The notes under the pieces: model-generated
The model's input: only the letters and a program-made list of their open reading frames with translations
The model's database searches: none
What the model was told of the DNA's origin: nothing
Shown here: positions 4,890 through 31,517 of the stretch, in pieces
Layout of the letters: every line of letters starts with the position of its first letter
How positions within the stretch are numbered: position 1 is the stretch's first letter
Origin: Patescibacteria group bacterium
GTDB lineage: Bacteria; Patescibacteriota; WWE3; UBA101185; UBA10185
Length of the DNA stretch: 61,708 bases
Direction of reading: 5' to 3'
NCBI GenBank assembly: GCA_041658075.1
Contig: JBBAAW010000003.1
Coordinates: forward strand, 1-61,708
Program-made: the position numbers and the translations under genes

Positions 4890-4934
<45 letters not shown>

Positions 4935-6108: not shown

Positions 6109-6145
<37 letters not shown>

Positions 6146-6726: not shown

Positions 6727-6735
6727 AGCGTAATC

Positions 6736-6766
<31 letters not shown>

Positions 6767-7597: not shown

Positions 7598-7630
7598 CGA
7601 TGTCGTCTCGTCGTATCCTGGGGCTGGAGT

Positions 7631-7663
<33 letters not shown>

Positions 7664-11744: not shown

Positions 11745-13090
11745 AAGGATTGAAAACAGTTTTTGTTTGTCAGAGCTGTTCTGCTCAAGTAACTAATTGG
11801 GCGGGGCAGTGTCCTCAGTGCGGAGAGTGGAATACCCTAGTTGAGACTTTAGACAGATCAGGTGGTGGTAAAGCTAGTGGGAAAAAAGCTGCCGACGGTA
11901 TTAGTGCAGGCTTTATAGCGTTGACCAAGTTAGAAACTTTGGATAAGGTTAAGGTTAGAGATACGGAAAGATTTTTAACTGGAGTAGGGGAATTTGATAG
12001 AGTTTTAGGCGGAGGATTCGTTCTTGGTCAAGCAGTTCTTTTAGCTGGGGAGCCGGGAATAGGAAAGAGTACTTTAATTACCCAAGTATGTAAAAGTCTT
12101 GATACTAAAAGTATCTTGTACATGTGTGGTGAGGAAAGTCCTGCTCAAATTAAGCTTAGAGCGGCAAGGATGGGCTATAGGGGCGCCAACCTGAGTATGC
12201 TTCAAGAAACTGACGTAGATATTATTGAACAAATAGTGTACTCCAACTCCGAAAACGCTAAAAACGGTCAAAAATTTGATTTGTTAGTAATTGACTCGAT
12301 ACAAACTTTGTACACAAAAGACCTAATGTCGTCTGCCGGATCGGTCGCTCAGATTAAGGAATGTTCTCAAAGGTTGGTTAGGGCAGCAAAGAACATGAAT
12401 ATATGTGTCATATTGGTTGGGCACGTTACAAAAGAAGGTGAAATTGCCGGTCCTAAGGTTTTGGAGCATGTGGTGGATACAGTTTTATATATGGAGGGTG
12501 ACTCGCAGCACTTGTACAGAATTTTGCGGACTACTAAAAATAGATTTGGTGCGGTTTCAGAGGTGGGGATGTTTGAAATGGTAGAAAACGGGATTAAGGA
12601 AGTTACTAACCCCAGCGAATTGTTTGTTAGCAAAGCTGATGCTAGTATGCTAGGTTCATGTGTTGCGGTTGCTATGGAGGGATTTAGACCAATTTTGTAT
12701 GAAATTCAAGCGCTTTCGGTAAAAACCAATTTTGGTTATCCAAAGCGTACAGCAAGTGGTTTTAATATCAACAGACTTCAGGTTTTATTGGCGGTACTAG
12801 AGAAGCGTTGCAAAATTCCATGCTATCAGTACGACATTTACCTAAATATTGCCGGTGGCTTTAAAATAAATGATAGTGCTTCTGATCTTGCTGTTTGCCT
12901 TGCGGTAGCGTCGTCTATTTTAGAAAAGCCTTTAAAACAAGGTACGGCCGTTTTTGGAGAGGTTGGACTTATGGGAGAAGTGCGGGTGGTTCCGCACGCG
13001 CAGAAGCGCGCACAAGAAGCTAAGCGACTTGGCTATAAGGCCGACTTTTCCCACAAATTCGTGAGCGAGTACATTAAATCCCTTCTATAG
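11735..13090 (+). CDS. radA: DNA repair protein RadA/Sms
   Basis: Zn-finger CQSCSAQVTNWAGQCPQCGEWNT, Walker A GEPGIGKST, KNRFG motif, and a Lon-like C-terminal domain. Confidence 0.9.
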   Translation: MAMKGLKTVFVCQSCSAQVTNWAGQCPQCGEWNTLVETLDRSGGGKASGKKAADGISAGFIALTKLETLDKVKVRDTERFLTGVGEFDRVLGGGFVLGQAVLLAGEPGIGKSTLITQVCKSLDTKSILYMCGEESPAQIKLRAARMGYRGANLSMLQETDVDIIEQIVYSNSENAKNGQKFDLLVIDSIQTLYTKDLMSSAGSVAQIKECSQRLVRAAKNMNICVILVGHVTKEGEIAGPKVLEHVVDTVLYMEGDSQHLYRILRTTKNRFGAVSEVGMFEMVENGIKEVTNPSELFVSKADASMLGSCVAVAMEGFRPILYEIQALSVKTNFGYPKRTASGFNINRLQVLLAVLEKRCKIPCYQYDIYLNIAGGFKINDSASDLAVCLAVASSILEKPLKQGTAVFGEVGLMGEVRVVPHAQKRAQEAKRLGYKADFSHKFVSEYIKSLL

Positions 13091-16072: not shown

Positions 16073-16094
16073 CTCAACCAACCCATACAATTAG

Positions 16095-16123
16095 TTGACA
16101 AATACTACAGCTTCATATAGTAT
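16095..16123 (+). promoter_or_regulatory. sigma70-type promoter of AbiE operon
   Basis: TTGACA (16095-16100), a 17-nt spacer, then TAGTAT (16118-16123). Preceded by CAACCAACCCATA. Confidence 0.65.
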
Positions 16124-16166
16124 ATCTGGATACTCAAATGTCACTATTATTGGTGATGAACATGTT

Positions 16167-16946
16167 ATGGAATATACTGGATTAAGTCAAAAAGATACCC
16201 AAATGCTTGAGGAGCTTATTCTAAAATATGGCAATGTTTTGGACTATGAAGACGTTGCATCAATTTTTAAGAACTATTATTCGGACGAAGGATCTATAAG
16301 AAACCGGGTGAGCGTTTTACAAAAAGCCGGATGGTTTAAAAGAATAAAAAAAGGTGTCTACTTTATAAATGAAAACCTCGGTACCAGGGGACAGCTGGTT
16401 GAGTCGGTTTTAGTAATCTCGAGCATTCTTGAATCAAACGCCTATATTTCATTGTCGCACGCCCTTAATTATCATCAAATGTACGACCAGTACAGTACAA
16501 AAGTTACAGCTATTGGAAAAGAGAGAGGAAAATCGTACAAAGTAGGTCTGTATAGTTTTAAATTCGTGAAGGTGGAAGAAGAGATGTATTTTGGGTTTAG
16601 TGATACGCTTGTAGACGGAAGGTTAGTAAAGATTGCGGATGCGGAGAAAGCCTTAATCGACTTCCTTTACTTGGATAAAAGCTTCATCAGCGCAAACTTA
16701 GTTTTTGAAAAATTAACACTATATAAAGAGTCGTTTTTAGACTGTTCAAAACTAACTACTTATGTATTAAAATGCGGGGTGACTGTAAGAAGAAAGATGG
16801 GTTTTTTAATGGAGTCGGCGGGATTAAATACCTTGGATATAGTAAAGAGCTTGGAGGGCAACAGAACCGCGGTAAAGTTCTATTCGGATTGTAAGGAATT
16901 TAATTCAAAGTGGCGGGTATATTATGACAGCAGAATTATTAAGTAA
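16167..16946 (+). CDS. AbiEi-family type IV antitoxin / transcriptional regulator
   Basis: The track ORF starts at 16095 inside the -35 box; the first ATG is 16167. Carries the AGWFKRIKKGVYF motif typical of AbiEi. Overlaps the downstream AbiEii gene. Confidence 0.65.
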   Translation: MEYTGLSQKDTQMLEELILKYGNVLDYEDVASIFKNYYSDEGSIRNRVSVLQKAGWFKRIKKGVYFINENLGTRGQLVESVLVISSILESNAYISLSHALNYHQMYDQYSTKVTAIGKERGKSYKVGLYSFKFVKVEEEMYFGFSDTLVDGRLVKIADAEKALIDFLYLDKSFISANLVFEKLTLYKESFLDCSKLTTYVLKCGVTVRRKMGFLMESAGLNTLDIVKSLEGNRTAVKFYSDCKEFNSKWRVYYDSRIIK

Positions 16947-17700
16947 AGCGCAACTTGGTTTATTAAACAGAAGTTTAGGATATCCGCTAGCTGTAGCCGA
17001 AAAAGACTATTTTTTGGCTCTCGCCTCAAAGGTTATCTATGATAGCGAATTAAAGGATAAGTTGATTTTTAAGGGCGATACGGCTTTATATCACACATAC
17101 TTACCACAACTTAGATTTTCTGAAGACTTGGATTACTCTACACACGGAACTAAGATAGTTTCCAACGATTTAAGGTCCGCGTTTGAGAAATTCTCGTTTT
17201 TCGAGGTCAAGAAGCAGTACGATTCTCCTTTTGGTGCAAAACTTGAGAGACTTTCTTATAACGGTCCTTTGGGTCAGCCTGGTTTTATAAAACTAGAGGT
17301 TGATACAACTCAAAATGTTGTTCTCCCGGCAAGAAATCTTGGGTATAGAAATAATTACGGGTTAGTCTTTAATGTTAAGGTTATGGATATCAGGGAAATC
17401 ATGGCGGAAAAGCTTAGGGCTATGAGCGAGAGGGTAAGATACAGGGATTTTTATGACTTTTGCACGATTAACAAAAACTTTGATATTAGTATGGACGGGG
17501 TCTTAGATTTAGCTGCTAAAAAAGAGATAAGAAGCGAGATAAGTGTAAGTACCATAAATTCAAATTGGGAGCTCGCTCTTAAGCAGAAGGACGACGATAT
17601 ATTTTCTATTCACATTTCCCAAGAGTTGAATAATGACTATGTTTATAAAATAATTAGCGGGTTTAACTTTAAGCCCTTGCAACCAACCCATAGTATTTGA
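16924..17700 (+). CDS. AbiEii/AbiGii-family nucleotidyltransferase toxin
   Basis: FKGDTALYHTYLPQLRFSEDLDYS matches the FKGGTAL...RFSEDLDF signature. 258 aa. Confidence 0.75.
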   Translation: MTAELLSKAQLGLLNRSLGYPLAVAEKDYFLALASKVIYDSELKDKLIFKGDTALYHTYLPQLRFSEDLDYSTHGTKIVSNDLRSAFEKFSFFEVKKQYDSPFGAKLERLSYNGPLGQPGFIKLEVDTTQNVVLPARNLGYRNNYGLVFNVKVMDIREIMAEKLRAMSERVRYRDFYDFCTINKNFDISMDGVLDLAAKKEIRSEISVSTINSNWELALKQKDDDIFSIHISQELNNDYVYKIISGFNFKPLQPTHSI

Positions 17701-17725
17701 CAGAAACGGGCAAATCTGTTAGTAT
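17697..17725 (+). promoter_or_regulatory. sigma70-type promoter P1
   Basis: TTGACA, a 17-nt spacer, then TAGTAT. The -35 box overlaps the AbiEii stop codon. Preceded by CCCATAGTAT. Confidence 0.6.
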
Positions 17726-17781
17726 TTGTCTTGTTCATCTTCTGCCAAAACCTACCGTTTAGCCTTTTAAATACGTTTAGT

Positions 17782-17810
17782 TTGACAAAACTAGTGACCT
17801 ATAGTATACT
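17782..17810 (+). promoter_or_regulatory. sigma70-type promoter P2
   Basis: TTGACA (17782-17787), a 17-nt spacer, then TATACT (17805-17810). Confidence 0.6.
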
Positions 17811-18048
17811 GAAACTTGTTAGTTGATTGAAGGGCTGCTACACACAATTACAACCTTTTAATCAGCCAATAATTTATTGGTTGAAGCACATTAAAAAAAC
17901 GCACATTGTCTAGGTATTGTGGGTAAGGCTTGTTTGAGCATAATTAGGTTGTAAATTCATTTTTGCGACTTGGTTAAGCTCAAACAGAGCCTACGGAAGA
18001 AGTTTTGTCCGTTTTTCGACAATTCAACATTACATCAGGAGGGTCACC

Positions 18049-18585
18049 ATGGAAACGCCGAAATTCTTGAAGAAAGCTCTCATCGCGCTGAGGATGAGAG
18101 AGGACAGCCTGGCTGTTCTGGAGTCCGGTCTCGGTGAGGCTGGACTGTCGGATGCCGATATGGCGTCCCTGGATCCGAAGCAACTCGAGAAGTTGCGCAC
18201 TGTGGTTCTCAAGACCGAGGTGGGCGATGCGATCGCAGTGTTCTCGGACCGCGTCGGTACCGAATTCACTCCGGACGAGCGCAAGATCTTGATCCGCATC
18301 GCGGAGATTGCTGTGAAGCGCTCCGGGCGGTTGCCTGAGTTGGTCGCCACCCTCCGCAAGGAAGGTGAGAACAAGCAGGCTGCGGAGATCGCGGGATTGA
18401 AGGGTCAGTTGTCGGGGCAGAGCCACACCATGGCTGAGATGCAGGCGACGCTGCAGGATATGCAGGCGTTCATGGTCGCCCAAGCGAAGTTGCAGATGCA
18501 GGCTAATGCGCCCGTCGCACCCCCGCCCGCTCAGGCTCCTGCCGTCCCGCCCGCGCCCGTCGCACCCCCGCCCCCCGGCGCCTAA
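18049..18585 (+). CDS. GC-rich hypothetical protein with Pro/Ala-rich tail (cassette B)
   Basis: 178 aa. AGGAGG lies 7 nt upstream of the ATG. No signal peptide. Helical or coiled middle region and a C-terminal APVAPPPAQAPAVPPAPVAPPPPGA tail. The line 18241-18300 has 35/60 G+C. Confidence 0.6.
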   Translation: METPKFLKKALIALRMREDSLAVLESGLGEAGLSDADMASLDPKQLEKLRTVVLKTEVGDAIAVFSDRVGTEFTPDERKILIRIAEIAVKRSGRLPELVATLRKEGENKQAAEIAGLKGQLSGQSHTMAEMQATLQDMQAFMVAQAKLQMQANAPVAPPPAQAPAVPPAPVAPPPPGA

Positions 18586-18595
18586 GATGTGCGTA

Positions 18596-18645
18596 CCCGC
18601 AACGAAGATTTGATTTACATAATCACTTCTTTTCTTCGTTGCGGG
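18596..18645 (+). terminator. 12-bp GC-rich long-loop hairpin after cassette B ORF
   Basis: CCCGCAACGAAG (18596-18607) pairs with CTTCGTTGCGGG (18634-18645). The loop is 26 nt. Confidence 0.5.
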
Positions 18646-18719
18646 ACCACTTAAGTTTTTAAAGGTTTATGCCTTTGAAGATTTAAGTAGTCGTATAAGG
18701 TTAGTCAATATTTTGTTTT

Positions 18720-18745
18720 GCCCCATATTTTCTTGGGGCTTTTTT
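18720..18745 (+). terminator. canonical intrinsic terminator
   Basis: GCCCCA/TGGGGC stem, 8-nt loop, then TTTTTT. Confidence 0.75.
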
Positions 18746-18757
18746 GTTACCCATCTA

Positions 18758-18786
18758 TTGCTTAACTTTCTTTTAGTCTCTATATT
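18758..18786 (+). promoter_or_regulatory. promoter of kinase-like operon
   Basis: TTGCTT, a 17-nt spacer, then TATATT. Preceded by ACCCATCTAT. The predicted TSS is about 6 nt before ATG 18799. Confidence 0.5.
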
Positions 18787-18798
18787 TAATACAAGACT

Positions 18799-20112
18799 AT
18801 GGCAAATAATGCACAATTTCCAACTATGACCTCTGCAATGGGGAGCTTTGATGAGTCGCATATGCGGTTATTACAGGTGGACGCAGGTATGGAAGTAAAA
18901 CTTACTTCCTTGGAACTTTCTAATCCAACAACTCCATATTCAGCAAGTTTTGAACGAGTGGGTAAGTTTTTGGGCGCGGGTGGTGAAAAAACCGCTTTTG
19001 AATACACAGATAGCAGGGGAAATCCCATGGTTTTGGCGCTAATGAATGCCTCAAGAAATCAAAGGGTAGGTTGTGCAAGTCTACCTGCAAATGTAGCTAT
19101 GAATGCTCGTATGGCAAACTATGTTAGCAGACCAGAGGATATGTTAAGAATGGTGGAAGACGCCAATGTGTTGCAACGGCAGTACGAAATAAAAGAATAT
19201 CACTACTTACAAATGCGAGACAGGTTTCCGGGCAAAGAAGCTATCGGAGATTTACAATTAACCCAGTTTAACGGGTTGGTTACGGCATTAAATGGGGGAA
19301 GACCTTTACACCCCGATACTTTTACTTATGCTCGTCCGGCTGAGTTTCAAGGTGGGGTTGTTGGTTATATAAATTACCTTACTGCTCATGTTAAAGGTCT
19401 AAACCCTAATTTGTTAATTGGAGAGCAGGTTTTTCCACAGATCTACTTGTATGGTGTTTTTAATGAAGCTGATGTAATGCCACAAGCCGTTGCTGCCCGT
19501 GCAGCTTTGCAAGCTAAGGAAAAGGGCAGGGATTTTAGCCCTAATCTAGCAAGGCGACCCTGGATGACCATGGAAAAATATTCTGCTACTTTAGACCAGA
19601 TTATCGACGATAGTCTGGATTATATTATGGCAGGTAGAAATCAAACAGATAGGTTTACGCGCATGCGCCAGGTGGTGGGGGAAAGGTTTCCGCTTGAGGC
19701 CATTCAGCAAATTATCGTAAATATGAACGTAGTTCATTCCTTAGGTTATTGCTTTGGAGACTTAAAATTGCCTAATATTGCGTTTAAGAGAAACGGCGAC
19801 GGTAAAACCCTAGGACTTATTGCTGATCCTGGACTGGTTAAAGAGGGCAAAAGGGTTCTGTATGCGTCAGAAGCCTACTTACCTCAAGGAAATTTTGATG
19901 TTCACACCCCGGAAGGACGAGTTGAGGTTAGGCATCCTGTAAGCGAGTTGCAGATAGGTAAATTAAGAGCTGCGCGGGATTTGGATAATTATGCTATGAG
20001 CGTTATAAGAGGAGCAATATTTGAAGGTATGAGTGATCCTTACGCGTTTGACGCGTTTTTAAAGAAATATCGTGAAATGAAACTAGCAAGTGCTAGAGGG
20101 AGTGAATTTTAA
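18799..20112 (+). CDS. hypothetical protein with protein-kinase-like catalytic-loop motifs
   Basis: 437 aa. G-rich loop FLGAGGEKTAFEY, HRD-like CFGDLKLPNIAF, DFG-like LIADPGL 22 aa later, and APE-like YASEAY. There is a large insert between the lobes and the VAIK lysine is unclear. Confidence 0.4.
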   Translation: MANNAQFPTMTSAMGSFDESHMRLLQVDAGMEVKLTSLELSNPTTPYSASFERVGKFLGAGGEKTAFEYTDSRGNPMVLALMNASRNQRVGCASLPANVAMNARMANYVSRPEDMLRMVEDANVLQRQYEIKEYHYLQMRDRFPGKEAIGDLQLTQFNGLVTALNGGRPLHPDTFTYARPAEFQGGVVGYINYLTAHVKGLNPNLLIGEQVFPQIYLYGVFNEADVMPQAVAARAALQAKEKGRDFSPNLARRPWMTMEKYSATLDQIIDDSLDYIMAGRNQTDRFTRMRQVVGERFPLEAIQQIIVNMNVVHSLGYCFGDLKLPNIAFKRNGDGKTLGLIADPGLVKEGKRVLYASEAYLPQGNFDVHTPEGRVEVRHPVSELQIGKLRAARDLDNYAMSVIRGAIFEGMSDPYAFDAFLKKYREMKLASARGSEF

Positions 20113-20128
20113 AAGGAGGTAAATCAAT

Positions 20129-21988
20129 ATGCCGTTTAAAATACTGGGATTGTCAAAAGGTGATGAAGGCCAAGGTAAGAAAAGTCAATTAGAAACAGAA
20201 ATTGAGAAAAGAGGACGAGCCGAACTGTCCCCCAGAAGGGATGTGGTTTCCGGTTCCGAGGTTAAAACATATAGAGACGAACGCGGCATCTTAGAATATC
20301 GCGAAGTTGACGCTGTAATTACAAGAAATTGCGAAATGGATCTAGTAAACGGGGCTTATATTATTGCGCCTAAAGAAGGTCGCAAATATTTAGAGGGTGG
20401 TGAGGCCAAAGTTTCGGTAATAGATACACCGGACGCTCGTATTGTGATGGTTTTTAGACCTTCAGATGAGCATTTTTCTCAAGATGGGATTGGTGTAAGT
20501 GTTGTTAAAGATATTGAGGGAGGGTTAAGAGTTGGTACAGCATTGTGCGACGGGAAAACCAGAGTTAAAGTATCTGCTGCACTGCCGAGTTATGTATCTT
20601 ATGGGGAAGATAGAGTGTATTACTCAAGAGCCGAACAGTATGCGGCATTTGCCTCAGGTTATTTTCCAAGAGCCTTAGCATTAGGTTTGAAACAAAATGC
20701 TCAAACTGGTCAATATGAAGGGAATTCGGCTAAAGTTGTTGCCGGAGCTTTAGGGGAGATAGACAAATTAAATTCTGACAGAACCATGCAGACCCCATAC
20801 GGTATGGAAAGAGAGGTAGGTGGGATGCCCTGGGGTACTACCACCGTTCAAATGAGTGCTATTAGAGTTCTGGGTGGTCAGATGGCGATAGAAGTTATGA
20901 ATATGGGCAAGGGGGATGATTTGGGTGAGAATGCTTTGTTACAATCCCCTGGAGCCGTTAGTAAAATGGGTAATACAGTTGGGGATAGGCCCTTAGAACT
21001 CGGCAGATTTGGAACACCGCAGGGTTTTAAGGCAGAAAGGCTTTTAGCAGCTTCCCGTGCTGGTACAAGAAGCGGTGTAGCAGTTGTTCCAGCGCAGGTC
21101 TTTGTGCAGGTTTCCGATGGTTTTAAGGTTCCTAAAGGTGGTATCAGAACAAACGGCGGGTTCGTTAGTTTAGAGCAGCTTCTGAGTCTACCTTCTGAAG
21201 ACGTTGTGGCCTTTTTGCAGCAAAACGCCACTTTAGCTTTTGGTAATGAAAAAGCTTCTCACGACGATGGAACTGTAATTGCTGTTGTTCCCAGAAGTGT
21301 TTTACAAAGGAACGGGTTTGATTATGTCAAGGCTTATGGACAAGTGAAGTTTTCTCAAGCCTCACCTGTTAAGGAGGGGATACCGTCTATTGTTCCAACA
21401 GCCTCAGCACAAGCTGCAGCTGAGAAAGCTAATGTTGTAGAGATTGCCCGATCTGAGGTTCTAAGTAATCTATCTCAAACCGCCGCGGGTGTGTTAGAAG
21501 AGGTTATAAGAGAAGCAGAGGCGGCTACCCCTGTAGAGATAGAGAATGCAGTGATGCAGAGCAATGGGATAGTGGCGGCTGCTTCTGGACCGTCTCCCGA
21601 AGAGGTTGCAGTTTCCGAGGTTCCTGAAGAAATACTAGTTAATCAGGATGTAGCAAAAGCTGCCACTCTGATTGCCCAAAGGCTAGGTGTGGCTATAGAA
21701 AGTCATCAATTAACTGGGGAATCTGGAGAAGTTTTTGTGCAGGTTGCTCAGTATTTGGAAGCAAAGATGTCTGAGCTTAAAGCCCTGATGGAGGCCGGAA
21801 TGGTTAAAGGTGTAGCCCCATTAGAACAGATGGCAAAACTTTTTGAAATCGAAATTGACTACAGAGCTGTCCAGACGGCTAAAAAGCTATTGAGAGTAAG
21901 GGGAAGACCGGGGTTTAAGGATAAGGTGGGTTCAAAACCGAACACGCAAAGTCCTTCTGCAGTCAAAGAGTCCGATCCTAAAGTGTAA
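20129..21988 (+). CDS. hypothetical protein, possible divergent PP2C-like N-terminal domain with acidic helical C-terminal half
   Basis: 619 aa. AAGGAGG SD; starts 16 nt after the kinase-like gene. Weak PP2C-like strings in the right order and spacing: RPSDEHF..QDGIG, VQVSDGF, HDDGTVIAVV. Confidence 0.3.
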   Translation: MPFKILGLSKGDEGQGKKSQLETEIEKRGRAELSPRRDVVSGSEVKTYRDERGILEYREVDAVITRNCEMDLVNGAYIIAPKEGRKYLEGGEAKVSVIDTPDARIVMVFRPSDEHFSQDGIGVSVVKDIEGGLRVGTALCDGKTRVKVSAALPSYVSYGEDRVYYSRAEQYAAFASGYFPRALALGLKQNAQTGQYEGNSAKVVAGALGEIDKLNSDRTMQTPYGMEREVGGMPWGTTTVQMSAIRVLGGQMAIEVMNMGKGDDLGENALLQSPGAVSKMGNTVGDRPLELGRFGTPQGFKAERLLAASRAGTRSGVAVVPAQVFVQVSDGFKVPKGGIRTNGGFVSLEQLLSLPSEDVVAFLQQNATLAFGNEKASHDDGTVIAVVPRSVLQRNGFDYVKAYGQVKFSQASPVKEGIPSIVPTASAQAAAEKANVVEIARSEVLSNLSQTAAGVLEEVIREAEAATPVEIENAVMQSNGIVAAASGPSPEEVAVSEVPEEILVNQDVAKAATLIAQRLGVAIESHQLTGESGEVFVQVAQYLEAKMSELKALMEAGMVKGVAPLEQMAKLFEIEIDYRAVQTAKKLLRVRGRPGFKDKVGSKPNTQSPSAVKESDPKV

Positions 21989-22007
21989 CGGTGTAAGCCC
22001 ATAGTAT

Positions 22008-22036
22008 TTGACATTAGGACGGTTTTACCCTATAAT
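22008..22036 (+). promoter_or_regulatory. perfect consensus promoter TTGACA-17-TATAAT
   Basis: TTGACA at 22008-22013 and TATAAT at 22031-22036. Preceded by CCCATAGTAT, identical to the 17686 copy. Confidence 0.7.
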
Positions 22037-22324
22037 TGTCGCATTATCCCTTATTGGTCTTTATTCCTGCCGGTTGATGTAAAGGCATAAATCTTGTGCT
22101 TTTAAATCAGCCTAATTTGGCTGTTTTGACAATTAAATGTTTTAGTCTACTTGGACCATTTTTCTCCTGTTGACGAGTTTGGATGCGGCTGTTCGCAAGT
22201 TGAGTATAAGCAGTTGTTTTATACGACTTTGCTTGTACCTGTCTTGCGAACAATCGCCGGTTGAAAAAAAAACCGAATTCTGAATCAGTAGATCAGTCAA
22301 ATGTCCAACAAGAGGGAGGACGAA

Positions 22325-23455
22325 ATGGTACTCACGAATCGGAGTACAATCTGGGCGATCGTAGTGGCTGTATTGTTTGGGGTAGTGGCTTTGGTGGCAG
22401 TTGCCGCCTTAGCTGGGTGGATCCAGCTGGGTTTACCTGCCACTGTTCCGACTCCCACCTATTTGATGGAGTCCAGCGCTTTAGCGGCAACGCCGACGCC
22501 CACATTCACGCCGGTGCCGCCGACAACGGTATTGCCCACGGTCGCGTTTACATTCACCCCGACGCCGACCTCGACGTTCACGCCGACGCCGACGAAGGTG
22601 GCGACGAAGGCTAACACGGCTACGGTTGAGTTTACGCCGACGCCGACGAAGGTGGCGACGACCGTCACCACGGTTATGTCCGACACGTTGCGTCCTGCGC
22701 TTTGGTTAGCGACCAACGGCCAGAAGTGTGAGTGGGGTGTGCCGTTGGGGACGATCTTAAGCGGGGAAAACGCTTCGTACGTCTTTACCAATTGCACCTC
22801 CTTCAACCTGAAGCCAGGAAAAACAGTCAGCTTCGACTGGACCTACAGTCGGGCAGATTATGAGTTCCTGCTCGAGGGAGAGGCAGGTGCGGAAGGAATC
22901 GCGTGGTGGGGACCCATGTCGGGAAGTACGGTGAGCGTTCGGTACAATGATGGACCGGTCTGCATAGGCAGATCCTTTGAGGTCCTGCCGGACGTGAGGA
23001 TCACTGGGGTGTTCACAAACGCTGCTGGCGTCACAAACGCAACCTGGTCGCAAGGCGATTGGGGAGTGAGCCTTAACAAGCTTTATCCGCCCGAATGCAG
23101 GCCCGGCAAGGTGACGACTGTCACGGTGAGCGCTCAGCCCACACCTAACTCGGCCGTCGTGCCAACGCCCAAGCCCGCGAGCCAGCCAACCGCTTCTGTC
23201 GTCCCGGTGGCTCCTGCCGCCGAATCTGCGATGCGCAAATTGACGCAGGCGACCTACGGGCCGATCAGCTTCAAAAGTGCCGAGCAGTTCGGAGTGCAGC
23301 ACATGGGAAACTGGGTGTTTCACGTCCGGGGGTGGACAATCGACATGGTGGCGAAAGATTTCGTCTGCACGTGGGTCGACTGGACCACCAGCGTCAAGGC
23401 TCCGCCGTGGAACGGTGATTACAAGATCACTTGCATGTGGAGCCCCACGAAGTAG
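22325..23455 (+). CDS. GC-rich membrane-anchored protein with PT linker (cassette C)
   Basis: The track ORF starts at 22301, but GAGGGAGGA SD favours ATG 22325. TM anchor IWAIVVAVLFGVVALVAVAALAGW, then a TPTPTFTP.../FTPTPTKVAT x2 linker, then a Cys/Trp-containing extracytoplasmic domain. The line 22561-22620 has 41/60 G+C. Confidence 0.6.
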   Translation: MVLTNRSTIWAIVVAVLFGVVALVAVAALAGWIQLGLPATVPTPTYLMESSALAATPTPTFTPVPPTTVLPTVAFTFTPTPTSTFTPTPTKVATKANTATVEFTPTPTKVATTVTTVMSDTLRPALWLATNGQKCEWGVPLGTILSGENASYVFTNCTSFNLKPGKTVSFDWTYSRADYEFLLEGEAGAEGIAWWGPMSGSTVSVRYNDGPVCIGRSFEVLPDVRITGVFTNAAGVTNATWSQGDWGVSLNKLYPPECRPGKVTTVTVSAQPTPNSAVVPTPKPASQPTASVVPVAPAAESAMRKLTQATYGPISFKSAEQFGVQHMGNWVFHVRGWTIDMVAKDFVCTWVDWTTSVKAPPWNGDYKITCMWSPTK

Positions 23456-23515
23456 ACATCATCACCCCGCCCTGGGAGGTCTTGACGCGAATCATGCGTA
23501 CGGCCAATGGGTTAG

Positions 23516-23573
23516 AATCCCTCACCAAGCTAAGTTTGTGGCAACAGCCATGGACATAGTAAGGTGAGGGATT
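23516..23573. terminator. 11-bp long-loop hairpin between convergent genes
   Basis: AATCCCTCACC (23516-23526) pairs with GGTGAGGGATT (23563-23573). Confidence 0.5.
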
Positions 23574-23590
23574 TTCGTATCTAATCTAGT

Positions 23591-25237
23591 CTAGTTTCCA
23601 AACAAATTCGGTTTCTTATTCCTAAACAAATAAACTTCTTCCCCGTTAGGTAATCTATACGATGCTTTTGACTCAAAATATGTGTCTCCTTGTTGCTGCA
23701 TAAATCGATTAATTTGCACCATCTTGTCGTAATGTCTTAAGTTCATATCCCCGGGGTTATAGGCTGTTACCACGTAATCGTAGGGATACAAGGCCCTCCT
23801 CATGCCCTCAGATCCATTCCCCAGGTCTAGGTAGTAAATGTCATAGCCGGCAGTGGTTTTGTAGTAGGTGCCTTTATTGATTTGCAGGGAATCAAAGTTA
23901 ATAGAGTTAAAGTAAGGGTAATCAACCACGAACATTATTTTTCCCGTTTTTGTCTTGTACTTATCTAAGTCGTTCACTAAATAATTAAACATGTTTGAGA
24001 TCTGCCAATCCTGAGCTTTAAAAGAGAGTTCGTTGGTAGCACCGTTTAGCCATTGGTATTTGTTAGTGGGGAAGGCATAGGCGTAGCCAATAAATCTTAG
24101 GTTTCTTGGTAACTGAGGTATTTGATTGAATGAGATGAACAGGAAGAGTATGCCAAGATATGTTATTAGTACAGGCTTCAGGATTTTTGAGATGAGACTG
24201 CCTTTGAGCGACATTAAGAAGAGAGTGAGAGAAGCCATAAAAAAGGGCAAAACCGGCATAATGTAACGCACGTCCTTGTTTTTAAGTAAGGTAAAACATA
24301 GCCATGGAAACAAAACAGAGAAGGCGAGGGTTTTAGCATAAGGAATTTTTTTGGCTATCGTAACGACTATGGATGCAAGAATAAGGATGAAGAATGGAAA
24401 AGATGTCTGGAAAGCAAAGGAAAGATAAAAATACTCCAAGACACCGGTAAGAGAAAATACATTCTGAGGGTCGTTGAGTTCACCTAAAGACGCCACTGAG
24501 CTGAAGAAGTTGAATATTGAGCTTTGGTTTATGGCGTACCAGGGAACAACGAGAAAAACGCTCAAGATTAATCCCTTTAATACATTTACAAGAGCGTATT
24601 GTTTGGTTTCGGTTTTGAACATGATAACGGTTTGTCCAAAGAAGGGAATTAAAAGGTACAAAAAGGCATACCATTTGGTAAGTTGTGCAAAAGAGGCCAG
24701 AAGGAAAAAAAGTATAGTGTGTTTCTTGCTTACAAAACCGTTTGATTTAAAAAGATAATACAATGATGCGATAATAAGAGCCGTTAGAGGTAGGTCCAGT
24801 TGGAAGAGCCTTGTTTCCGTAAAAACCTGCGGTGTTAATGCAAAAACTAAGCAGGAAAAAAGAGCAATGGTTTTGTCTTGAGTCAAGAGATGTGTCAGTT
24901 TAAACAGATAAACGAGTCCAAATATTAGAAACAAGAAAGTTAGGATAAGAGGGGAATTTAGTATTGGTATTAGTAAGTAAATTAAAGAGCCTGCTAAGTG
25001 CACAAACGGGGGATAGTAGCCGGAAAGAGTGGGGATTTCTGCTATTCGCAGCTCTTTAAACTTGTTGGCGTAAAGCATGGAGAGGTTAATGTGGGCGGCG
25101 CTATCCCATTTTTGTGGGGCGGTGTTTAAAATTTGGTACAGAATGCTCAGAGAGATAGTAAACCCAATCAATACCAGATAGACTGTTTGTTCCTTAGTAA
25201 ATTTAGTTAAAAAGTTGCGCATTGGTTTGAACCTCAA
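23591..25237 (-). CDS. polytopic membrane protein, GT-C (ArnT/PMT-like) glycosyltransferase candidate
   Basis: 548 aa. About 12 predicted TM helices followed by a soluble C-terminal domain of about 150 aa. Sits in a glycosyltransferase neighbourhood. Confidence 0.45.
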   Translation of the reverse strand: MRFKPMRNFLTKFTKEQTVYLVLIGFTISLSILYQILNTAPQKWDSAAHINLSMLYANKFKELRIAEIPTLSGYYPPFVHLAGSLIYLLIPILNSPLILTFLFLIFGLVYLFKLTHLLTQDKTIALFSCLVFALTPQVFTETRLFQLDLPLTALIIASLYYLFKSNGFVSKKHTILFFLLASFAQLTKWYAFLYLLIPFFGQTVIMFKTETKQYALVNVLKGLILSVFLVVPWYAINQSSIFNFFSSVASLGELNDPQNVFSLTGVLEYFYLSFAFQTSFPFFILILASIVVTIAKKIPYAKTLAFSVLFPWLCFTLLKNKDVRYIMPVLPFFMASLTLFLMSLKGSLISKILKPVLITYLGILFLFISFNQIPQLPRNLRFIGYAYAFPTNKYQWLNGATNELSFKAQDWQISNMFNYLVNDLDKYKTKTGKIMFVVDYPYFNSINFDSLQINKGTYYKTTAGYDIYYLDLGNGSEGMRRALYPYDYVVTAYNPGDMNLRHYDKMVQINRFMQQQGDTYFESKASYRLPNGEEVYLFRNKKPNLFGN

Positions 25238-27074
25238 AAATCACTATTCCGGAGTTTCTGTAAACCTCCTTAAATTTACTATATTTGTGTATAAAATCAA
25301 TAAAATCGTAGCCTTCCCAGTCAGATGGCTTAAGGTCATAAGGTTCCCAAACATTCCAATGTATACCCATTTTATTCTCATCGCTAGCCTTTTGCCATTC
25401 GGCAAACCTACCTCCAACCGCCAAAAGATACTTTTGAGGTGTTTCCTTGTTAAGTCCGTCTTTTATGGCCATGATTTTTAGAGCCATAGTTCTAGGGTCT
25501 CTGGTGTAATAGATATCGCTAAGTATTGCTCGAGTTTTTTCATCTGTATAAGCTCCACCGGGGGTGTTCACGCCGGACAATGCTTCTAGAATGTGCATAG
25601 TTACAGGATCGCTAATAAGTAAAACGTCTTTGTTGGCATAATTGTTGGCAAGGAATCGGGAGGCTCTAACTTCACTTGGCGATACATGAGTGGAAATATC
25701 TCTGTAAAACGGAACCTGTTTATAGGTAATGATGTTTACAATATAAATGGCGGCAAATGTGAGTATGAGCGTTATTAAACTTACGGCTTTAACAACTTTG
25801 CCGGATCTTTTTATTAATAGCCAGACCCCTAAAGCCATTAGAGTGTGAATAAAATATCTTGATACAGCGTATAACTTTGTGGAGTAGGGAATCGAGGCAA
25901 ACAGCAAGGAGAGACCCACAGCACAGAATAGAAGTAAGGCCTTATGGTTGTTTTTTCGGGTCAAAAGAACTACTAACATTCCCAGAGGCACAAGAATGTA
26001 AAAAGAAAGTCCATAAAAGCTCTTAGTATAAGCGTCCTTTTGCTCCAGGGTAAAATTAAAAAACTGCGCTTCGCCTCTGTTAAGCCAACTTAGATCAAGT
26101 TGGGAGGAGACGAGTGGCACGGCAAGCAGTACTAGGAGCGCAAATACAAAAAACCAGTCCTGCAGTTTTCTAGTTCTGTTAAAATTATTAAGTAGTAGAT
26201 AGACTGCAAGCATAAGGTACAAGGCTACTACGAAGGCTCCAATAATGAAGTGGTTTAGTACTATGAACGCAAGCAGAAGTAAATAATTAACTTTAAATAT
26301 TTTTTTGTCATTTTGATGTTGGGTGAATACCTTACTCAAAAAAACTGCTCCCAATGTTGCCGAGAGGTTTTGGGGAATTAAAAAGAGGGAAGTGTATGCT
26401 CCGTTTGCCTCAAAGACAAAAGCGCCTAGTAGAGCTGCAATTAAACCGCAGGTTTTGCTTTTGGTAAAAGAGTAGCCGACTATAAAAGAGACAAACACCG
26501 TAAAGGCTAAATGGAAGAACTCAACGAACCACCAATAGCTTAAAATATCAGACTGCACCAGTCTTTGTGATGTGACAAGTAGCGTGTGGAATATGGTGGT
26601 GTACCCTGCAAATTGAAAAGTGTCGGAAAGTCCTGTAGTAAGCACGGTGAAATTACCTCTTCCGATGATGTTCGCTAGGGTTTGGTGGTGATATAGATCC
26701 CAGTTTAAGGTCGCGTTTGTTGGAGAGTCTAGTTTCCAGAGTCCGTACGAGATTATTGCGAGGATAAACAGGAACAAGGTAATTAATAAGCGGTTCTTTG
26801 TTAACAAGTTCTTACTGAAAGTTCCACGCGTTATCCCCAAAACAATAAAGACAAAGAATGACAATAGTGCCGAGACGGCTATAAACATTGTTGTTGGCTT
26901 AATAAAATTAAGGGCAAAAATGGCGTATATAATTAAACTCCCAAAAGCAAAAGACTCGAAGACAAAGTACAAATTTAGGTGCTTTTTGTTAAACAAAAGA
27001 GTAAAAGATGTACCTAATAATATAGGAAGCAAGTAAAAGAGTGAACTAGATGTTAGAGCAAATAATGTGTTCAT
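25203..27074 (-). CDS. polytopic membrane protein, GT-C-like candidate
   Basis: 623 aa. Many TM helices plus a soluble C-terminal domain. Translationally coupled to its neighbours by overlaps. Confidence 0.4.
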   Translation of the reverse strand: MNTLFALTSSSLFYLLPILLGTSFTLLFNKKHLNLYFVFESFAFGSLIIYAIFALNFIKPTTMFIAVSALLSFFVFIVLGITRGTFSKNLLTKNRLLITLFLFILAIISYGLWKLDSPTNATLNWDLYHHQTLANIIGRGNFTVLTTGLSDTFQFAGYTTIFHTLLVTSQRLVQSDILSYWWFVEFFHLAFTVFVSFIVGYSFTKSKTCGLIAALLGAFVFEANGAYTSLFLIPQNLSATLGAVFLSKVFTQHQNDKKIFKVNYLLLLAFIVLNHFIIGAFVVALYLMLAVYLLLNNFNRTRKLQDWFFVFALLVLLAVPLVSSQLDLSWLNRGEAQFFNFTLEQKDAYTKSFYGLSFYILVPLGMLVVLLTRKNNHKALLLFCAVGLSLLFASIPYSTKLYAVSRYFIHTLMALGVWLLIKRSGKVVKAVSLITLILTFAAIYIVNIITYKQVPFYRDISTHVSPSEVRASRFLANNYANKDVLLISDPVTMHILEALSGVNTPGGAYTDEKTRAILSDIYYTRDPRTMALKIMAIKDGLNKETPQKYLLAVGGRFAEWQKASDENKMGIHWNVWEPYDLKPSDWEGYDFIDFIHKYSKFKEVYRNSGIVIFEVQTNAQLFN

Positions 27075-27904
27075 ATTTTAAGACCAAAATTATCAGCAAC
27101 CTCTATCTCTATGTAGGGTTTTTCTAAACCCCTACTAAGCACTTTGAATTCAATTAGGTTCTCCTCGAGGTTAAGTTTTGCAATCTCTTGATTATTGTTT
27201 TTTGCCTCAAATTTGAGGATTCCGTTTAAATCTCGATTAAAAACATATAAAGTCTTGCTATCTAGATATTCTCCGGGATTTTGGGCTGGCTTTAAATTTA
27301 AGCCTAAAGCATTATTAATGTCGTTTAGGGTGTCTGCGTCCGCACTCTGTGTGTAGACGAACCCATTCTCGTCAAAAATTATGTCGTCTTGACTAAAACT
27401 TAAAGTCATAAAAAGCGTTCTGGAATTAGAAAGGGTAAAGGTGTTTTTGCTTATAACAAAGGCAATTTTATTACCTTCGACTCTGCTACCCAAAACCAAT
27501 TCATTTTTATTGAAAGTAAAAGTGGCACTGGGATTTTGCAGTTTTAGATAGCTTAAAACGGTATGCAAAATAGTTTGGTATTTTTTTGATTGATCAAAAA
27601 TTAATTGCGACTCTTTGCTGTATATGGGAGTTTCCCATTTAATAAGGTTTTCCTTGTTTCCTTGTCCGTCCAAATAGTAAGCTTGGTAGGGTGACACATT
27701 ATAAAAGATTTTGGAATTTTGCTGAGTTAGGTACAGCCCGTAGTGATAAGGTCTAATAACAAAAAATCCTACTTTTTTGTAGATATCAAAATCTTTGGGG
27801 ATAACCACACCATACAAAAAGATTACGCAAAGAATGGGTATTGTTATAAGAGGGGAGTATTTTTGAATTGGTGATGATATTTTTTTTGGTATCTTAAATT
27901 TCAC
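27071..27904 (-). CDS. membrane-anchored hypothetical protein
   Basis: 277 aa with a single N-terminal TM helix. First gene of the minus-strand three-gene operon. Confidence 0.5.
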   Translation of the reverse strand: MKFKIPKKISSPIQKYSPLITIPILCVIFLYGVVIPKDFDIYKKVGFFVIRPYHYGLYLTQQNSKIFYNVSPYQAYYLDGQGNKENLIKWETPIYSKESQLIFDQSKKYQTILHTVLSYLKLQNPSATFTFNKNELVLGSRVEGNKIAFVISKNTFTLSNSRTLFMTLSFSQDDIIFDENGFVYTQSADADTLNDINNALGLNLKPAQNPGEYLDSKTLYVFNRDLNGILKFEAKNNNQEIAKLNLEENLIEFKVLSRGLEKPYIEIEVADNFGLKI

Positions 27905-28065
27905 AAGTAGATTATAGCTTTAACTGCCTCAAAGCTAAAGAAGTCATCAACGCTCGGTTGATACATTGAAAACTGAATATCAGTATGAAGCCGCATCTAT
28001 CTGTCCCGCAGTCTTTTTGTCGTAATAACAATATTGCGACTAGAAGCTTGCGTAGAGCCTTAGGA

Positions 28066-28094
28066 TTGACATATGACCTATAGTAATGTATAAT
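28066..28094 (+). promoter_or_regulatory. perfect consensus promoter TTGACA-17-TATAAT
   Basis: -35 at 28066-28071 and -10 at 28089-28094. The predicted TSS coincides with ATG 28101. Confidence 0.7.
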
Positions 28095-28100
28095 ACGCCT

Positions 28101-28883
28101 ATGTTAAACCGTAAAAAGATTTCCTTAGTTATACCTTGTAAAAACGAGGAAAGAATCATTGCCAATACCATTAAAAACGTTCCATCTTATGTGGACGAGA
28201 TAGTTGTGGTTGACAACGGTTCTTCAGATAATTCTGCTTTAGTCGCCCAAGAAGCAGGGGCTATTGTGGTAAAAGAGCCTAGAAAACTAAACGGAATAGG
28301 ATATGGTTATGCTCACTTAAGCGGTATCCAAAAAGCCACCGGCGATTACATTTTTGGTATGGACGCTGATGATACCTATCCTTCCTATGAAATTAAAAAC
28401 ATCGTGGACTGCATGGAAAATGGGGGATTTGATGTAGTTTCTTGTAACAGACTTCCTTTAAGAAATCCTAAAGCTATTTCTAAACTAAGAAGGTTGGGTA
28501 TTTATGTATTAAATGTGGAAATATTTATGCTTTATGGTTACCCAATTAAGGATAGCTTAACAGGCATGTGGGGTATTAAAAGAGACTGTTTGTCTAAGCT
28601 TAACTTAAGAATGGGCGACTGGAACCTTTCTCCAGAGGTTAAAATATCCGCTATCATGAATAAAGATATAAAGTTTGATGAGTATCATATTGACCACTTT
28701 GTAAGGGAGAAGGAGCCCAGCAAGCAGGCTATATGGAAGACCGGTTGGAGCCACTTTAAATATATTGCCTCTAAAAGGTTTACAGAGGATAGCTTTTTGG
28801 GCAGTTTATTCTACAAGGTCTTTGTAAATAGGGAGTGGACGCAACCAGCTTTTACCGGCAAAAAGTTCATGTTTACTCTTTAA
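28101..28883 (+). CDS. family 2 glycosyltransferase (polyprenol-phosphate sugar transferase-like)
   Basis: ISLVIPCKNEE, VVVDNGSSDNS and MDADDTYP motifs. The track start at 28086 lies inside the -10 box. Confidence 0.8.
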   Translation: MLNRKKISLVIPCKNEERIIANTIKNVPSYVDEIVVVDNGSSDNSALVAQEAGAIVVKEPRKLNGIGYGYAHLSGIQKATGDYIFGMDADDTYPSYEIKNIVDCMENGGFDVVSCNRLPLRNPKAISKLRRLGIYVLNVEIFMLYGYPIKDSLTGMWGIKRDCLSKLNLRMGDWNLSPEVKISAIMNKDIKFDEYHIDHFVREKEPSKQAIWKTGWSHFKYIASKRFTEDSFLGSLFYKVFVNREWTQPAFTGKKFMFTL

Positions 28884-30078
28884 TTATCAAACCTTGCTTA
28901 AGCAGGGTGTACAGTTGTTCCGATATTACTTTCCAGTCAAAGCCTATTATAAGTTCTTGTCTAAAGTTGTCCGCGATTTTTTGCCGTTCCTCTTTGTGGG
29001 TTAATGCCCATGTTATAGCTTCTTCAAAAGCTTTGCTGTTTTTTTGTGGCACTAAAGTTCCGGTTTCTCCGTTTCTTAGTACTTCCCTCGTTCCGGCGTT
29101 GTCTGTGGCTATCACATAGCATCCTGCGGACCCCGCCTCTAAAACTGTGTTGGGAAATCCTTCATTGTGGTGCGAGGGGTTAATGAAAATATCGCTAATG
29201 CCTAAAAGCTCTTTTACTTGGTCGTATTTTAAGTCACCGGTTAACAGTACTTTATTCTCCAGTCCATCTTGTTGTATGAGATTTTTCATTTCTGTTTCAA
29301 GCTCTCCCGGTCCTCCCAGTACAAAGAGTGTGTTCTTTGCCTCTTGAACCTTTAGCACTTCCTTAATAGCATCGTAAAGATAGGTGATTCCTTTTGTCCA
29401 GATAAGGCGGCCTACATAAGTGACAAGCACAACATCGTCAGCGATTGGTATGTTAAGTTTTGACAGGACACGATTAGTTTTATTTGACGGTGTAAAGTAA
29501 TTTGTATCAACCCCACCGTAAACTATATACGACTCTTTTCTAAGTCGTAACTTTTCTCTAAAGAACTTTTGGACGGCTTTATTTGTAAAAGTAATGTAGT
29601 CGTAGAAACTAAGTGAAAAGGAGGCGATTGTAAGGTCCACAAACTTAGAGATATTTTCAACGATTTTGTTTTGATAGACGGGGTGGGTAGCTACATGGCC
29701 GGTAAAGATACTTTTTGCCCCAATTATCTTTGCATATATCCAAAGCCACCAAGTGGGATCAAAGAATCTTATATGGGTATTTACAAAATGATAATGGTTT
29801 CTTGAAAGCTTAACTAAAGCCGGGATAAGGTAAAGAGGATTTGGTAGGAGAAATCTAGCCGGAATAAAAGTTATGCACGGTACACGATAAATTCTAAAGC
29901 CTCGATACTCCTCATATCCTACTGTTCTGTCGCTATTGTAACAAAGTACATCCACCTTTAGATTTGGGTGATTTTTAATCATGGTGGCGTAAATTTCCTC
30001 GGCATATTTCTGGCTTCCGCCTCGGTGGGGGTAGAAAAAAGGAAGAACCAGCAAAAGTCTAATTTCGTTGTTTTTCAT
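28873..30078 (-). CDS. family 4 (GT-B) glycosyltransferase
   Basis: 401 aa with the C-terminal EGFPNTVLEAGSAGCYVIATD motif. Confidence 0.8.
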   Translation of the reverse strand: MKNNEIRLLLVLPFFYPHRGGSQKYAEEIYATMIKNHPNLKVDVLCYNSDRTVGYEEYRGFRIYRVPCITFIPARFLLPNPLYLIPALVKLSRNHYHFVNTHIRFFDPTWWLWIYAKIIGAKSIFTGHVATHPVYQNKIVENISKFVDLTIASFSLSFYDYITFTNKAVQKFFREKLRLRKESYIVYGGVDTNYFTPSNKTNRVLSKLNIPIADDVVLVTYVGRLIWTKGITYLYDAIKEVLKVQEAKNTLFVLGGPGELETEMKNLIQQDGLENKVLLTGDLKYDQVKELLGISDIFINPSHHNEGFPNTVLEAGSAGCYVIATDNAGTREVLRNGETGTLVPQKNSKAFEEAITWALTHKEERQKIADNFRQELIIGFDWKVISEQLYTLLKQGLIIKE

Positions 30079-31433: not shown

Positions 31434-31488
31434 AACTCGTATTTGATGTCAAGTAAAAGGGGAATTACCCAAAGTCGAACCTATAGTA

Positions 31489-31517
31489 TTGACAAAGCCT
31501 AAAATATAGGTTACAAT
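31489..31517 (+). promoter_or_regulatory. near-consensus promoter TTGACA-17-TACAAT
   Basis: -35 at 31489-31494 and -10 at 31512-31517. Preceded by CCTATAGTA. Confidence 0.65.

Follow-up and report, generated by a model that had tools for sequence, protein, structure and literature searches.

GC-rich genes in conserved untranslated frames of a putative envelope island in the candidate division WWE3

Selection that keeps a surface gene GC-rich within an AT-rich genome has its nearest precedent in vls, the antigenic-variation locus of Borrelia (vlsE and silent cassettes), whose cassettes have 49% guanine plus cytosine (GC) in a genome of 28.6% GC, a composition that the authors of that work ascribe to selection linked to gene conversion (PMC11499132). 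Here we describe three GC-rich open reading frames (ORFs), called A, B and C, in contig JBBAAW010000003.1 (positions 1 to 61,708; "the window" below means this whole 61.7-kb stretch), chromosomal DNA of 41.7% GC from a bacterium of the Candidate Phyla Radiation (CPR) whose proteins find their closest named relatives in the candidate division WWE3. As in Borrelia, a putative surface gene stands about 20 points above its AT-rich genome, with the opposite codon choice (PMC11499132), and variable coding sequence lies between conserved ends. The vls cassettes differ in their GC skew of about 0.5, against 0.05-0.12 for A, B and C, in which runs of three or more G and of three or more C are similarly numerous and the strong skew with G runs is absent. 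Borrelia also has an array of silent cassettes, whereas no silent copies were found across the window or in the relative loci that we retrieved, and the window has no other GC-rich segments. Finally, vls varies by segmental conversion within a cell; here whole ORFs are replaced by other alleles between strains, several unrelated gene families are affected and the trait is conserved across a candidate phylum.

Other described systems share further features with this locus. As in flexible surface islands (O-antigen, S-layer, glycosylation), a hypervariable block with adjoining glycosyltransferase genes lies in a conserved backbone, very old alleles occur across lineages, recombination takes place in the flanks and the products are surface-exposed, here by prediction. 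Replacement-type flexible islands usually lie at or below genome GC. Unlike them, the genes of the window lie far above it, the bias goes gene by gene (op1 and op2, the two genes between B and C, have native GC) and the conserved flanks are the untranslated regions (UTRs) of individual genes. Messages of very abundant bacterial proteins are stabilised by S-layer gene leaders, by the STAB-SD 5' stabiliser of cryIIIA and by the 3' retroregulator hairpin of cry1Aa. As at our locus, where stabilisation is putative, a single gene is surrounded in those systems by strong promoters in tandem, a long and structured 5' UTR, a consensus Shine-Dalgarno sequence (SD) and a large 3' stem-loop; unlike here, their ORFs are not known to be recoded to another composition. 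Integron cassettes likewise carry one ORF each, can be exchanged, have an unusual composition and end in an imperfect inverted repeat on the 3' side. We rejected an integron because no tyrosine-recombinase (integrase) domain was found in Pfam scans of 39 of the 49 listed ORFs of the window, because each unit has its own promoter and because the B 3' hairpin, read by eye, lacks the R''/R' core sites of attC (RYYYAAC / GTTRRRY); the fixed syntenic positions of the units are a further difference. In the literature searched, neither a class of GC-rich genes in CPR bacteria nor this arrangement had been described.

The reading that we favour, with moderate confidence, is that the region is a hypervariable envelope-protein island of a WWE3 (Katanobacteria) chromosome, in which old and maintained GC-rich ORFs sit in conserved UTR frames and their composition is selected at the level of the mRNA.

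Base composition of ORFs A, B and C

ORFs A (positions 240-1193, 317 amino acids), B (18049-18585, 178 amino acids) and C (22325-23455, 376 amino acids), all on the plus strand, have GC contents of 0.56, 0.63 and 0.59, and the GC at their third codon positions (GC3) is 0.66, 0.77 and 0.72. The 46 other ORFs of the window have GC3 values of 0.30-0.51 (mean 0.396, standard deviation 0.046), from which the three deviate with z scores of 5.8, 8.2 and 7.1, bearing out an earlier claim, made from the letters of this DNA alone (the sequence-only reading), that their composition is atypical. For many amino acids the codon preference is reversed between the GC-rich and the native set (TTC 66 versus 15%, ATC 68 versus 18%, AAG 75 versus 35%, CAG 79 versus 36%, ACG 44 versus 13%, CCG 48 versus 18%), and the shift extends to the first two codon positions and to amino-acid usage. 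Together with the gene of a further slot, D, found in relatives, A, B and C form a class of lineage-restricted, fast-evolving genes, whose coding sequences have about 60% GC and GC3 values of 0.66-0.84 in genomes of about 38-45% GC.

The change in composition follows the ORF closely. Averaged over 14 cassettes, GC is 0.31-0.41 upstream, reaches 0.55-0.68 from about 20 nucleotides inside the ORF and is back to 0.40 about 60-80 nucleotides past the stop codon, such that the rise starts at the start codon and ends with the 3' hairpin. Over the first 20 nucleotides of the ORF GC is still 0.44, in keeping with an initiation region that stays open, and the variable 35-65 nucleotides ahead of the ATG have only about 40-45% GC. 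Op1 and op2 lie within the same block and are as divergent as the GC-rich ORFs, yet have native GC. The step at the start codon, the native composition of op1 and op2 and the upstream stretch that is not GC-rich together point to a force tied to the translated message. Messages of this composition are predicted to fold with -0.38 to -0.43 kcal/mol per nucleotide, against -0.25 to -0.28 for native ones, and are thus about 50% more strongly folded per nucleotide by composition alone.

Sharp GC transitions, together with long ORFs on the opposite strand of the GC-rich segments, could suggest that these segments are assembly chimeras or are non-coding, and the sequence-only reading had itself named chimerism as an outcome that would overturn it. 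We regard this possibility as already refuted and give it practically no weight. The relative loci, on contigs designated L001, L002 and so on, come from independent assemblies (Logan, ENA, JGI, NCBI), and since these show the same junctions, chimerism is excluded. Among C alleles, differences at the third codon position are about twice as frequent as those at the first two, from which we conclude that the C genes are coding, and Trp, Cys, Gly and Asn residues are invariant in the family.

A second explanation places the force in translation: GC-ending codons would be the optimal ones of highly expressed genes, or a deliberately rare set read by tRNAs with C at position 34, and would tune the rate of translation or couple expression to tRNA supply. 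The bias indeed follows ORF boundaries, the window keeps genes for tRNA-Pro(CGG), tRNA-Arg(CCG) and tRNA-Ala(GGC), and the codons CCG and CGG, seldom used by native genes, are common in A, B and C. Against this, the gene for ribosomal protein S1 (8245-9399) has a GC3 of only 0.39. S1 genes are normally highly expressed. The shift also reaches first and second positions and amino-acid usage and is not confined to synonymous sites. For these two reasons the bias does not look like ordinary optimal-codon selection, and we hold the translational explanation to be very improbable.

Conserved frames and exchanged contents

The contig L001, from an independent assembly and located through homologues of C, carries the closest comparison. 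Its backbone proteins are 83-95% identical to those of the window, whereas identity drops to about 30-50% for its counterparts of B, op1, op2 and C. The non-coding flanks of these ORFs behave in the opposite way: the B leader is 94% identical to that of L001 over 300 nucleotides, the core of the C leader (22099-22262) 95%, and the 3' hairpin regions of B and C 92%, against 58-80% at four-fold degenerate sites of the neighbouring genes. Because the frames are more conserved than these sites while the ORFs inside them have been replaced, we conclude that the UTR frames are under purifying selection. Divergence begins 35-65 nucleotides before the start codon, with the SD inside the divergent part, and for B it stops within a few bases of the stop codon. 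Divergent, non-alignable alleles between conserved flanks in close relatives are the mark of a replacement-type flexible island, and this is what the two loci show.

The contents of the frames differ further in other relatives. L002 has a B-type promoter and leader (z 8 in comparison with the B leader of the window) ahead of an unrelated ORF X, which encodes a GC-rich membrane protein of 122 amino acids; it is directly followed by a C-type leader (z 13 against that of the window) with a C allele, and op1 and op2 are absent between the two. In L014 a B-type promoter is fused to a C-type leader, giving a hybrid of B and C ahead of a third C allele, while B, op1, op2 and the AbiE pair upstream of B are missing; the 5' part of the C leader of the window also aligns with L014. 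Slot D lies between two conserved genes and is filled in L001 by a promoter, an SD, a GC-rich ORF (10719-11441) for a predicted secreted protein of 240 amino acids and a 3' hairpin. The copy in L003 is truncated at its 5' end, and in the window the slot is emptied, with only part of the leader and the right half of the hairpin left (27945-28020, plus strand). The idea of conserved expression slots put forward from the sequence alone is thereby upheld, as the frames exceed their neighbours' synonymous sites in conservation and their contents are replaced in L001, L002, L014 and slot D. The ORFs in the frames, which strains exchange among each other, are either allelic lineages of great age or unrelated genes, and recombination between paralogous leaders removes or fuses units. 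Within the clade of the window the neighbouring PMT-like proteins are 84-94% identical and the C domains 48-56% (75% in one pair), no closer than to the C domain of L003, whose PMT-like protein is 55% identical. Judged from these sequences, the C alleles arose long before the genomes in which they now reside. Since the frames are conserved and the ORFs inside them vary, they also offer primer sites for surveys of alleles in metagenomes.

Clear recombination and allele turnover at the frames, together with the vls precedent of 49% GC cassettes in a 28.6% GC genome (PMC11499132), could speak for GC-biased gene conversion, or for high GC being required for conversion itself. We consider this quite unlikely. 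The conserved frames, which would be the necessary crossover sites, are AT-rich; GC rises at the start codon and not around the breakpoints; op1 and op2 are equally divergent in the same block and have native GC. The step at the start codon and the native op1 and op2 argue against any such regional process. The low skew and the lack of silent cassettes and of other GC-rich segments in the 61.7 kb, described above, speak against it as well.

A, B and C each form a transcription unit of their own on the plus strand: a sigma-70-type promoter of the kind usual in the lineage precedes a structured 5' UTR with a consensus SD, and a long hairpin follows the ORF. B has two promoters. P1 (17687-17725) consists of a CCCATAGTA element, TTGACA, a spacer of 17 nucleotides and a TG-extended TAGTAT; its core (17697-17725) scores 10/12 and it overlaps the stop codon of AbiEii. 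The same promoter starts the slot in L002 and L014. P2 (17782-17810; TTGACA, 17 nucleotides, TATACT; 11/12) contains CCTATAGTA in its spacer and is kept in L001. The conserved part of the B 5' UTR (17811-18013) comprises GTTGATTGAAGGGC, a small hairpin (17862-17884) and a long hairpin (17921-17996) with a folding z score of -8.3, equalled by 0 of 200 shuffles, in which both substitutions between window and L001 hit unpaired bases. From 18014 the leader cannot be aligned to L001; this variable end (18014-18048) includes the SD, AGGAGGG. Downstream of ORF B stands a hairpin (18592-18650; z -8.0) with an outer stem of 13 bp and an inner stem, whose substitutions relative to L001 are all in unpaired bases, and further on a conventional intrinsic terminator (18720-18749, GCCCCA...TGGGGC and then a run of T).

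The C promoter (21998-22036) again has the CCCATAGTA element, followed by TTGACA, 17 nucleotides and TATAAT, with a core (22008-22036) scoring 12/12. The conserved C 5' UTR (22037-22262) carries GTTGATGTAAAGGC, a hairpin CAGCC..GGCTG (22109-22124), a second TTGACA box and a long hairpin (22180-22262; z -5.8, 0 of 200 shuffles as good). An alignment shift disturbs the count of substitutions in this hairpin and we claim no compensatory change for it. After CGCCGGTTGAA the leader departs from L001, and its variable end (22263-22324) includes the SD, GGGAGGA. The C 3' hairpin (23508-23575; z -7.8), with a 13-bp outer stem and inner stems, lies between the convergent C and PMT-like genes; most L001 and L002 substitutions preserve its pairs, and L003 has a homologous hairpin with an altered stem. 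The slot-D 3' hairpin shows three fully compensatory pairs between L001 and L003. Between its C gene and 3' hairpin, L003 also has two tandem non-coding elements of about 100 nucleotides each (about 11750-11950, minus strand).

For A, promoter and leader span 87-239: a promoter at 87-114 (10/12), a leader of about 125 nucleotides with a 28-bp hairpin (131-200; z -9.9, 0 of 200 shuffles as good) and the SD GAGGAGG. Its GC-rich 3' hairpin (1196-1272) has a z score of -2.9 (1 of 200 shuffles) and does nest a second stem, as had been noticed from the letters. The common build claimed at the same time thus stands for promoters, leader hairpins, SDs and 3' hairpins; the A leader falls short of the 190-280 nucleotides given for it, the long-range leader stems are the bases of 25-30 bp hairpins, and the unusually long loops ascribed to the B and C 3' hairpins fold into inner stems. 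In the clade of the window generally, 5' UTRs measure 120-320 nucleotides and hold a hairpin of 25-30 bp.

The leaders of B and C are more alike than shuffled sequences, as had been proposed, with z 5.2 including the promoter and z 3.0 without it (3 of 300 shuffles), and the motifs common to them are present in L001 too. The A leader shares their layout, with no significant sequence similarity to either (z below 1.5); the CAATTCA that A and B were said to share is probably a chance match and sits where the B leader lacks conservation with L001. While the stems of the leader hairpins differ, their apex is common, a U-rich stretch followed by CGACUU (CUACUU in L014), found at 17961-17971 and 22222-22232 of the window, at 247-257 of L001 and at 239-249 and 895-905 of L002. 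It may be a binding site for a protein or an RNA. RNAalifold predicted no consensus structure from the leader hairpins aligned with MAFFT, as their stems cannot be aligned by sequence, and Rfam models gave no match in 17600-23650 up to an E value of 5, apart from one chance snoRNA. Leader peptides were rejected as there are no credible upstream ORFs inside the leaders. We also rejected the 16-mer CCCATAGTATTTGACA as a mark of the cassettes: it represents a general promoter type of the lineage, CCYATAGTAT(T)TGACA, an upstream element fused to the -35 box, which precedes native and GC-rich genes alike (window 31481-31493; on the minus strand L003 1734-1746, L005 3842-3854 and L007 3064-3076).

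Persistence of the bias across WWE3 and its possible cause

A C-family gene adjoins the PMT-like gene, at the same position throughout, in seven WWE3 lineages (the window's clade, L003/4, L005/6, L010 with L007/8, L015, L016), whose PMT-like proteins are 39-94% identical to that of the window. In every lineage the C-family gene has a GC of 0.59-0.64 and a GC3 of 0.71-0.80, against 0.24-0.46 for the backbone. The gene order recurs in L010, a distant WWE3 lineage that matches a WWE3 genome from Rifle groundwater, as B-like (GC3 0.84), op1 (0.32), op2 (0.24) and C (0.78), which agrees with the earlier suggestion that B, op1, op2 and C form a module and extends it to the alternation of GC-rich and native genes. 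Between C alleles, 52-67% of aligned codons differ at the third position, and we judge synonymous sites to be at or near saturation. As the bias persists at such sites, a GC3 of about 0.75 represents an equilibrium rather than a leftover, and as the gene is GC-rich at the same position in all sampled lineages, GC-rich coding is actively maintained and not recently imported. The bias is therefore old, and no residue of recent import.

Atypical GC is the standard signal for horizontally acquired genes, and it also flags contamination or chimeras in metagenome-assembled genomes. By composition A, B and C look foreign to their host (GC3 0.66-0.77 against 0.40 +/- 0.05), and the sequence-only reading had called them so. 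The orthologous loci of relatives contradict this, since they are neither empty nor at native GC: orthologous C genes are GC-rich in seven lineages and at native GC in none. Nor were the closest homologues found in a donor or mobile element of matching GC. An exhaustive HMMER search with the C domain returned 16 relatives among 1.84 billion representative proteins, and every one that could be placed sits on a WWE3-like contig, within the limited sensitivity of such a search. The first search with full-length C returned three proteins only and missed L003, L005 and L010, we suspect because the Thr/Pro-rich linker filled the candidate list; a profile search recovered only the L010 lineage, and the alignment of six C sequences was too divergent for pattern scanning. 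No match was obtained when GTDB species genomes were scanned with the PMT-like protein and the C-family alignment, when IMG/VR was scanned with the promoter motif and with proteins, or by tblastn of ORF A and the C domain against phages, and pattern scans of JGI metagenomes found nothing either.

Foreign origin could also take the form of recurrent import, in which ORFs from a GC-rich donor pool (a mobile element that has escaped sampling, relatives within the CPR that are GC-rich, or a host organism) again and again replace the resident ones by recombination in the conserved frames, so that the GC-rich state would be that of the donor, as the sequence-only reading had it. Several observations fit this: codon positions and amino-acid usage resemble those of genes from an ordinary genome of about 60% GC, allele relationships depart from those of the backbone, an unrelated GC-rich ORF occupies the B-type slot of L002 and none of the GC-rich ORFs belongs to a Pfam family. 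Recurrent import nevertheless appears unlikely to us. The homologues that could be placed lie only on WWE3-like contigs, and the GTDB and JGI scans, the phages and IMG/VR gave none; one family keeps its position throughout seven lineages; homologous replacement would require that the donor, too, had these AT-rich frames; and the variable stretch upstream of the ATG is not GC-rich. What remains is that specific genes have been kept 20-25 GC points (30-40 at third positions) above their genome, at fixed positions and through what we judge to be saturating divergence, and this genome-reduced symbiont must therefore be subject to a force that acts on the base composition of particular genes. Calls of transfer or contamination based on composition would misfile these genes.

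As to the nature of that force, hairpin-capped UTRs and consensus SDs make selection for mRNA stability the most likely candidate. Under our favoured reading GC-rich coding, hairpin-capped UTRs and a strong SD would act jointly on the mRNA and would yield stable, strongly folded, ribonuclease (RNase)-resistant messages for abundant surface proteins. The frames would serve both as elements of expression or stability and as homology arms for allele replacement, the hypervariability would result from diversifying selection by hosts or phages, and C and the slot-D protein would be substrates of the adjacent PMT-type enzymes.

Several points weigh against this reading. Selection for stable, structured, RNase-resistant mRNA is the cause that we favour, yet one that we only infer. 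All three codon positions resemble those of an ordinary 60% GC genome, which fits a foreign or mutational origin too. When compared with synonymous-codon shuffles, C folds better (z -3.0) and A (z -0.7) and B (z -1.2) do not. Long leaders are confined to the clade of the window, and those of L010 measure 25-40 nucleotides, so that the GC-rich state does not depend on long leaders. Two surface proteins of the window, a DUF11 protein (31565-32176) and a Thr/Pro-repeat protein (1362-2426), have native GC, and secretion alone therefore does not explain the bias. ORF B has no signal peptide or export signal and its status as an envelope protein is not established. Sampling is also thin, with four genomes of the window's clade and one contig for each deeper lineage.

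A broader version of the favoured reading, which we put forward as tentative, is that WWE3/Katanobacteria use two coding dialects in one small genome, in which hypervariable envelope genes are held at about 60% GC by selection on the message, through its stability, folding or decoding by C34 tRNAs, and the hairpin-capped frames act as arms with which strains swap whole ORFs. If this were true, atypical composition would mark a functional class of genes and not horizontal transfer, and the leader hairpins, with CGACUU at the apex, would represent a cis-acting RNA element of a new kind.

Products, neighbouring genes and setting

Searches of Pfam and PHROGs gave no match for any GC-rich ORF, and A has no Pfam, phage or viral match. 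Most genes of the class encode proteins with a high content of Thr, Pro and Ala that are predicted to be secreted or anchored in the membrane. The A protein has a predicted signal peptide and would be secreted. The B protein consists of a helical N-terminal part and a Pro/Ala-rich tail, an architecture shared by its positional counterparts in L001 (206 amino acids, GC3 0.69) and L010 (177 amino acids, GC3 0.84), which are 18-27% identical. The C protein comprises an N-terminal membrane anchor, a disordered Thr/Pro-rich linker and two beta-rich domains, and some alleles of the family have a lipobox. A structure model of C (pLDDT 55) has no significant fold match; its best, non-significant matches are CBM-like (carbohydrate-binding) beta-sandwich domains. 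With the signal peptide of A, the anchor of C and the adjacent PMT, GT2 and GT4 genes, the localisation of the island's products at the surface is a prediction, which makes the GC-rich genes candidates for host- or phage-facing surface proteins in a phylum that has no cultured member.

Adjoining C, a backbone that is syntenic in all relatives (23591-30078) encodes two PMT_2-type glycosyltransferases, an unknown gene, a GT2 and a GT4, and is probably the glycosylation machinery for the Thr/Pro-rich proteins. Given these neighbours, O-glycosylation of such proteins is a reasonable guess.

Op1 (18799-20112, plus strand, 437 amino acids, GC3 0.35) is a divergent protein of native GC, 35-38% identical to its L001 counterpart and 25% to that of L010. 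Its D-L-K-x-x-N and DPG motifs are conserved in three homologues, and its profile aligns with Ser/Thr kinase catalytic loops in the PDB at E values of 0.016-0.06, while the Pfam Pkinase match (E 0.15) is below threshold. A kinase-like nature, as the sequence-only reading had it, is thus weakly but consistently indicated. For op2 (20129-21988, plus strand, 619 amino acids, GC3 0.34, also native GC) the same reading had proposed a PP2C-like protein, which no tool supports: the resemblance lies in DGK and HDDGT motifs seen by eye, four homologues gave no Pfam match up to an E value of 10, the PDB holds no sequence match and a single-sequence structure model is unusable (pLDDT 35). Homologues of op2 occur in L001, L010 and L005/6. 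Of the other neighbours named there, the COG1373 ATPase (AAA_14 plus DUF4143) and AbiEii are clear Pfam matches and AbiEi is a weak one.

The AbiEi/AbiEii pair upstream of B (16095-17700) is bracketed by direct copies of CAACCAACCCATA (16076-16088 and 17681-17693), each followed by a TTGACA box. As L014 has a single copy and no AbiE genes, the pair looks like an insertion that duplicated the promoter. A second AbiEi/AbiEii pair (30138-31433, minus strand) adjoins the DUF11 surface protein and a sortase, of native GC.

The setting includes housekeeping genes, namely those for ribosomal protein S1, ClpB-like protein, RadA, RelA/SpoT, Rho, Obg, DprA, LeuRS, ArgRS and ComEC, along with a 23S rRNA gene (4361-7995), a 5S rRNA gene and six tRNA genes. 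The 23S rRNA gene is interrupted by a group I intron (6396-6671). Among the tRNA genes are those for tRNA-Ala(GGC) at 37805-37880, tRNA-Arg(CCG) at 54299-54373 and tRNA-Pro(CGG) at 56794-56870, whose retention may be linked to the GC-rich genes. Directly 3' of A, the Thr/Pro-repeat protein at 1362-2426 has TPTPT repeats like those of C, written in A/T-ending codons with a GC3 of 0.30.

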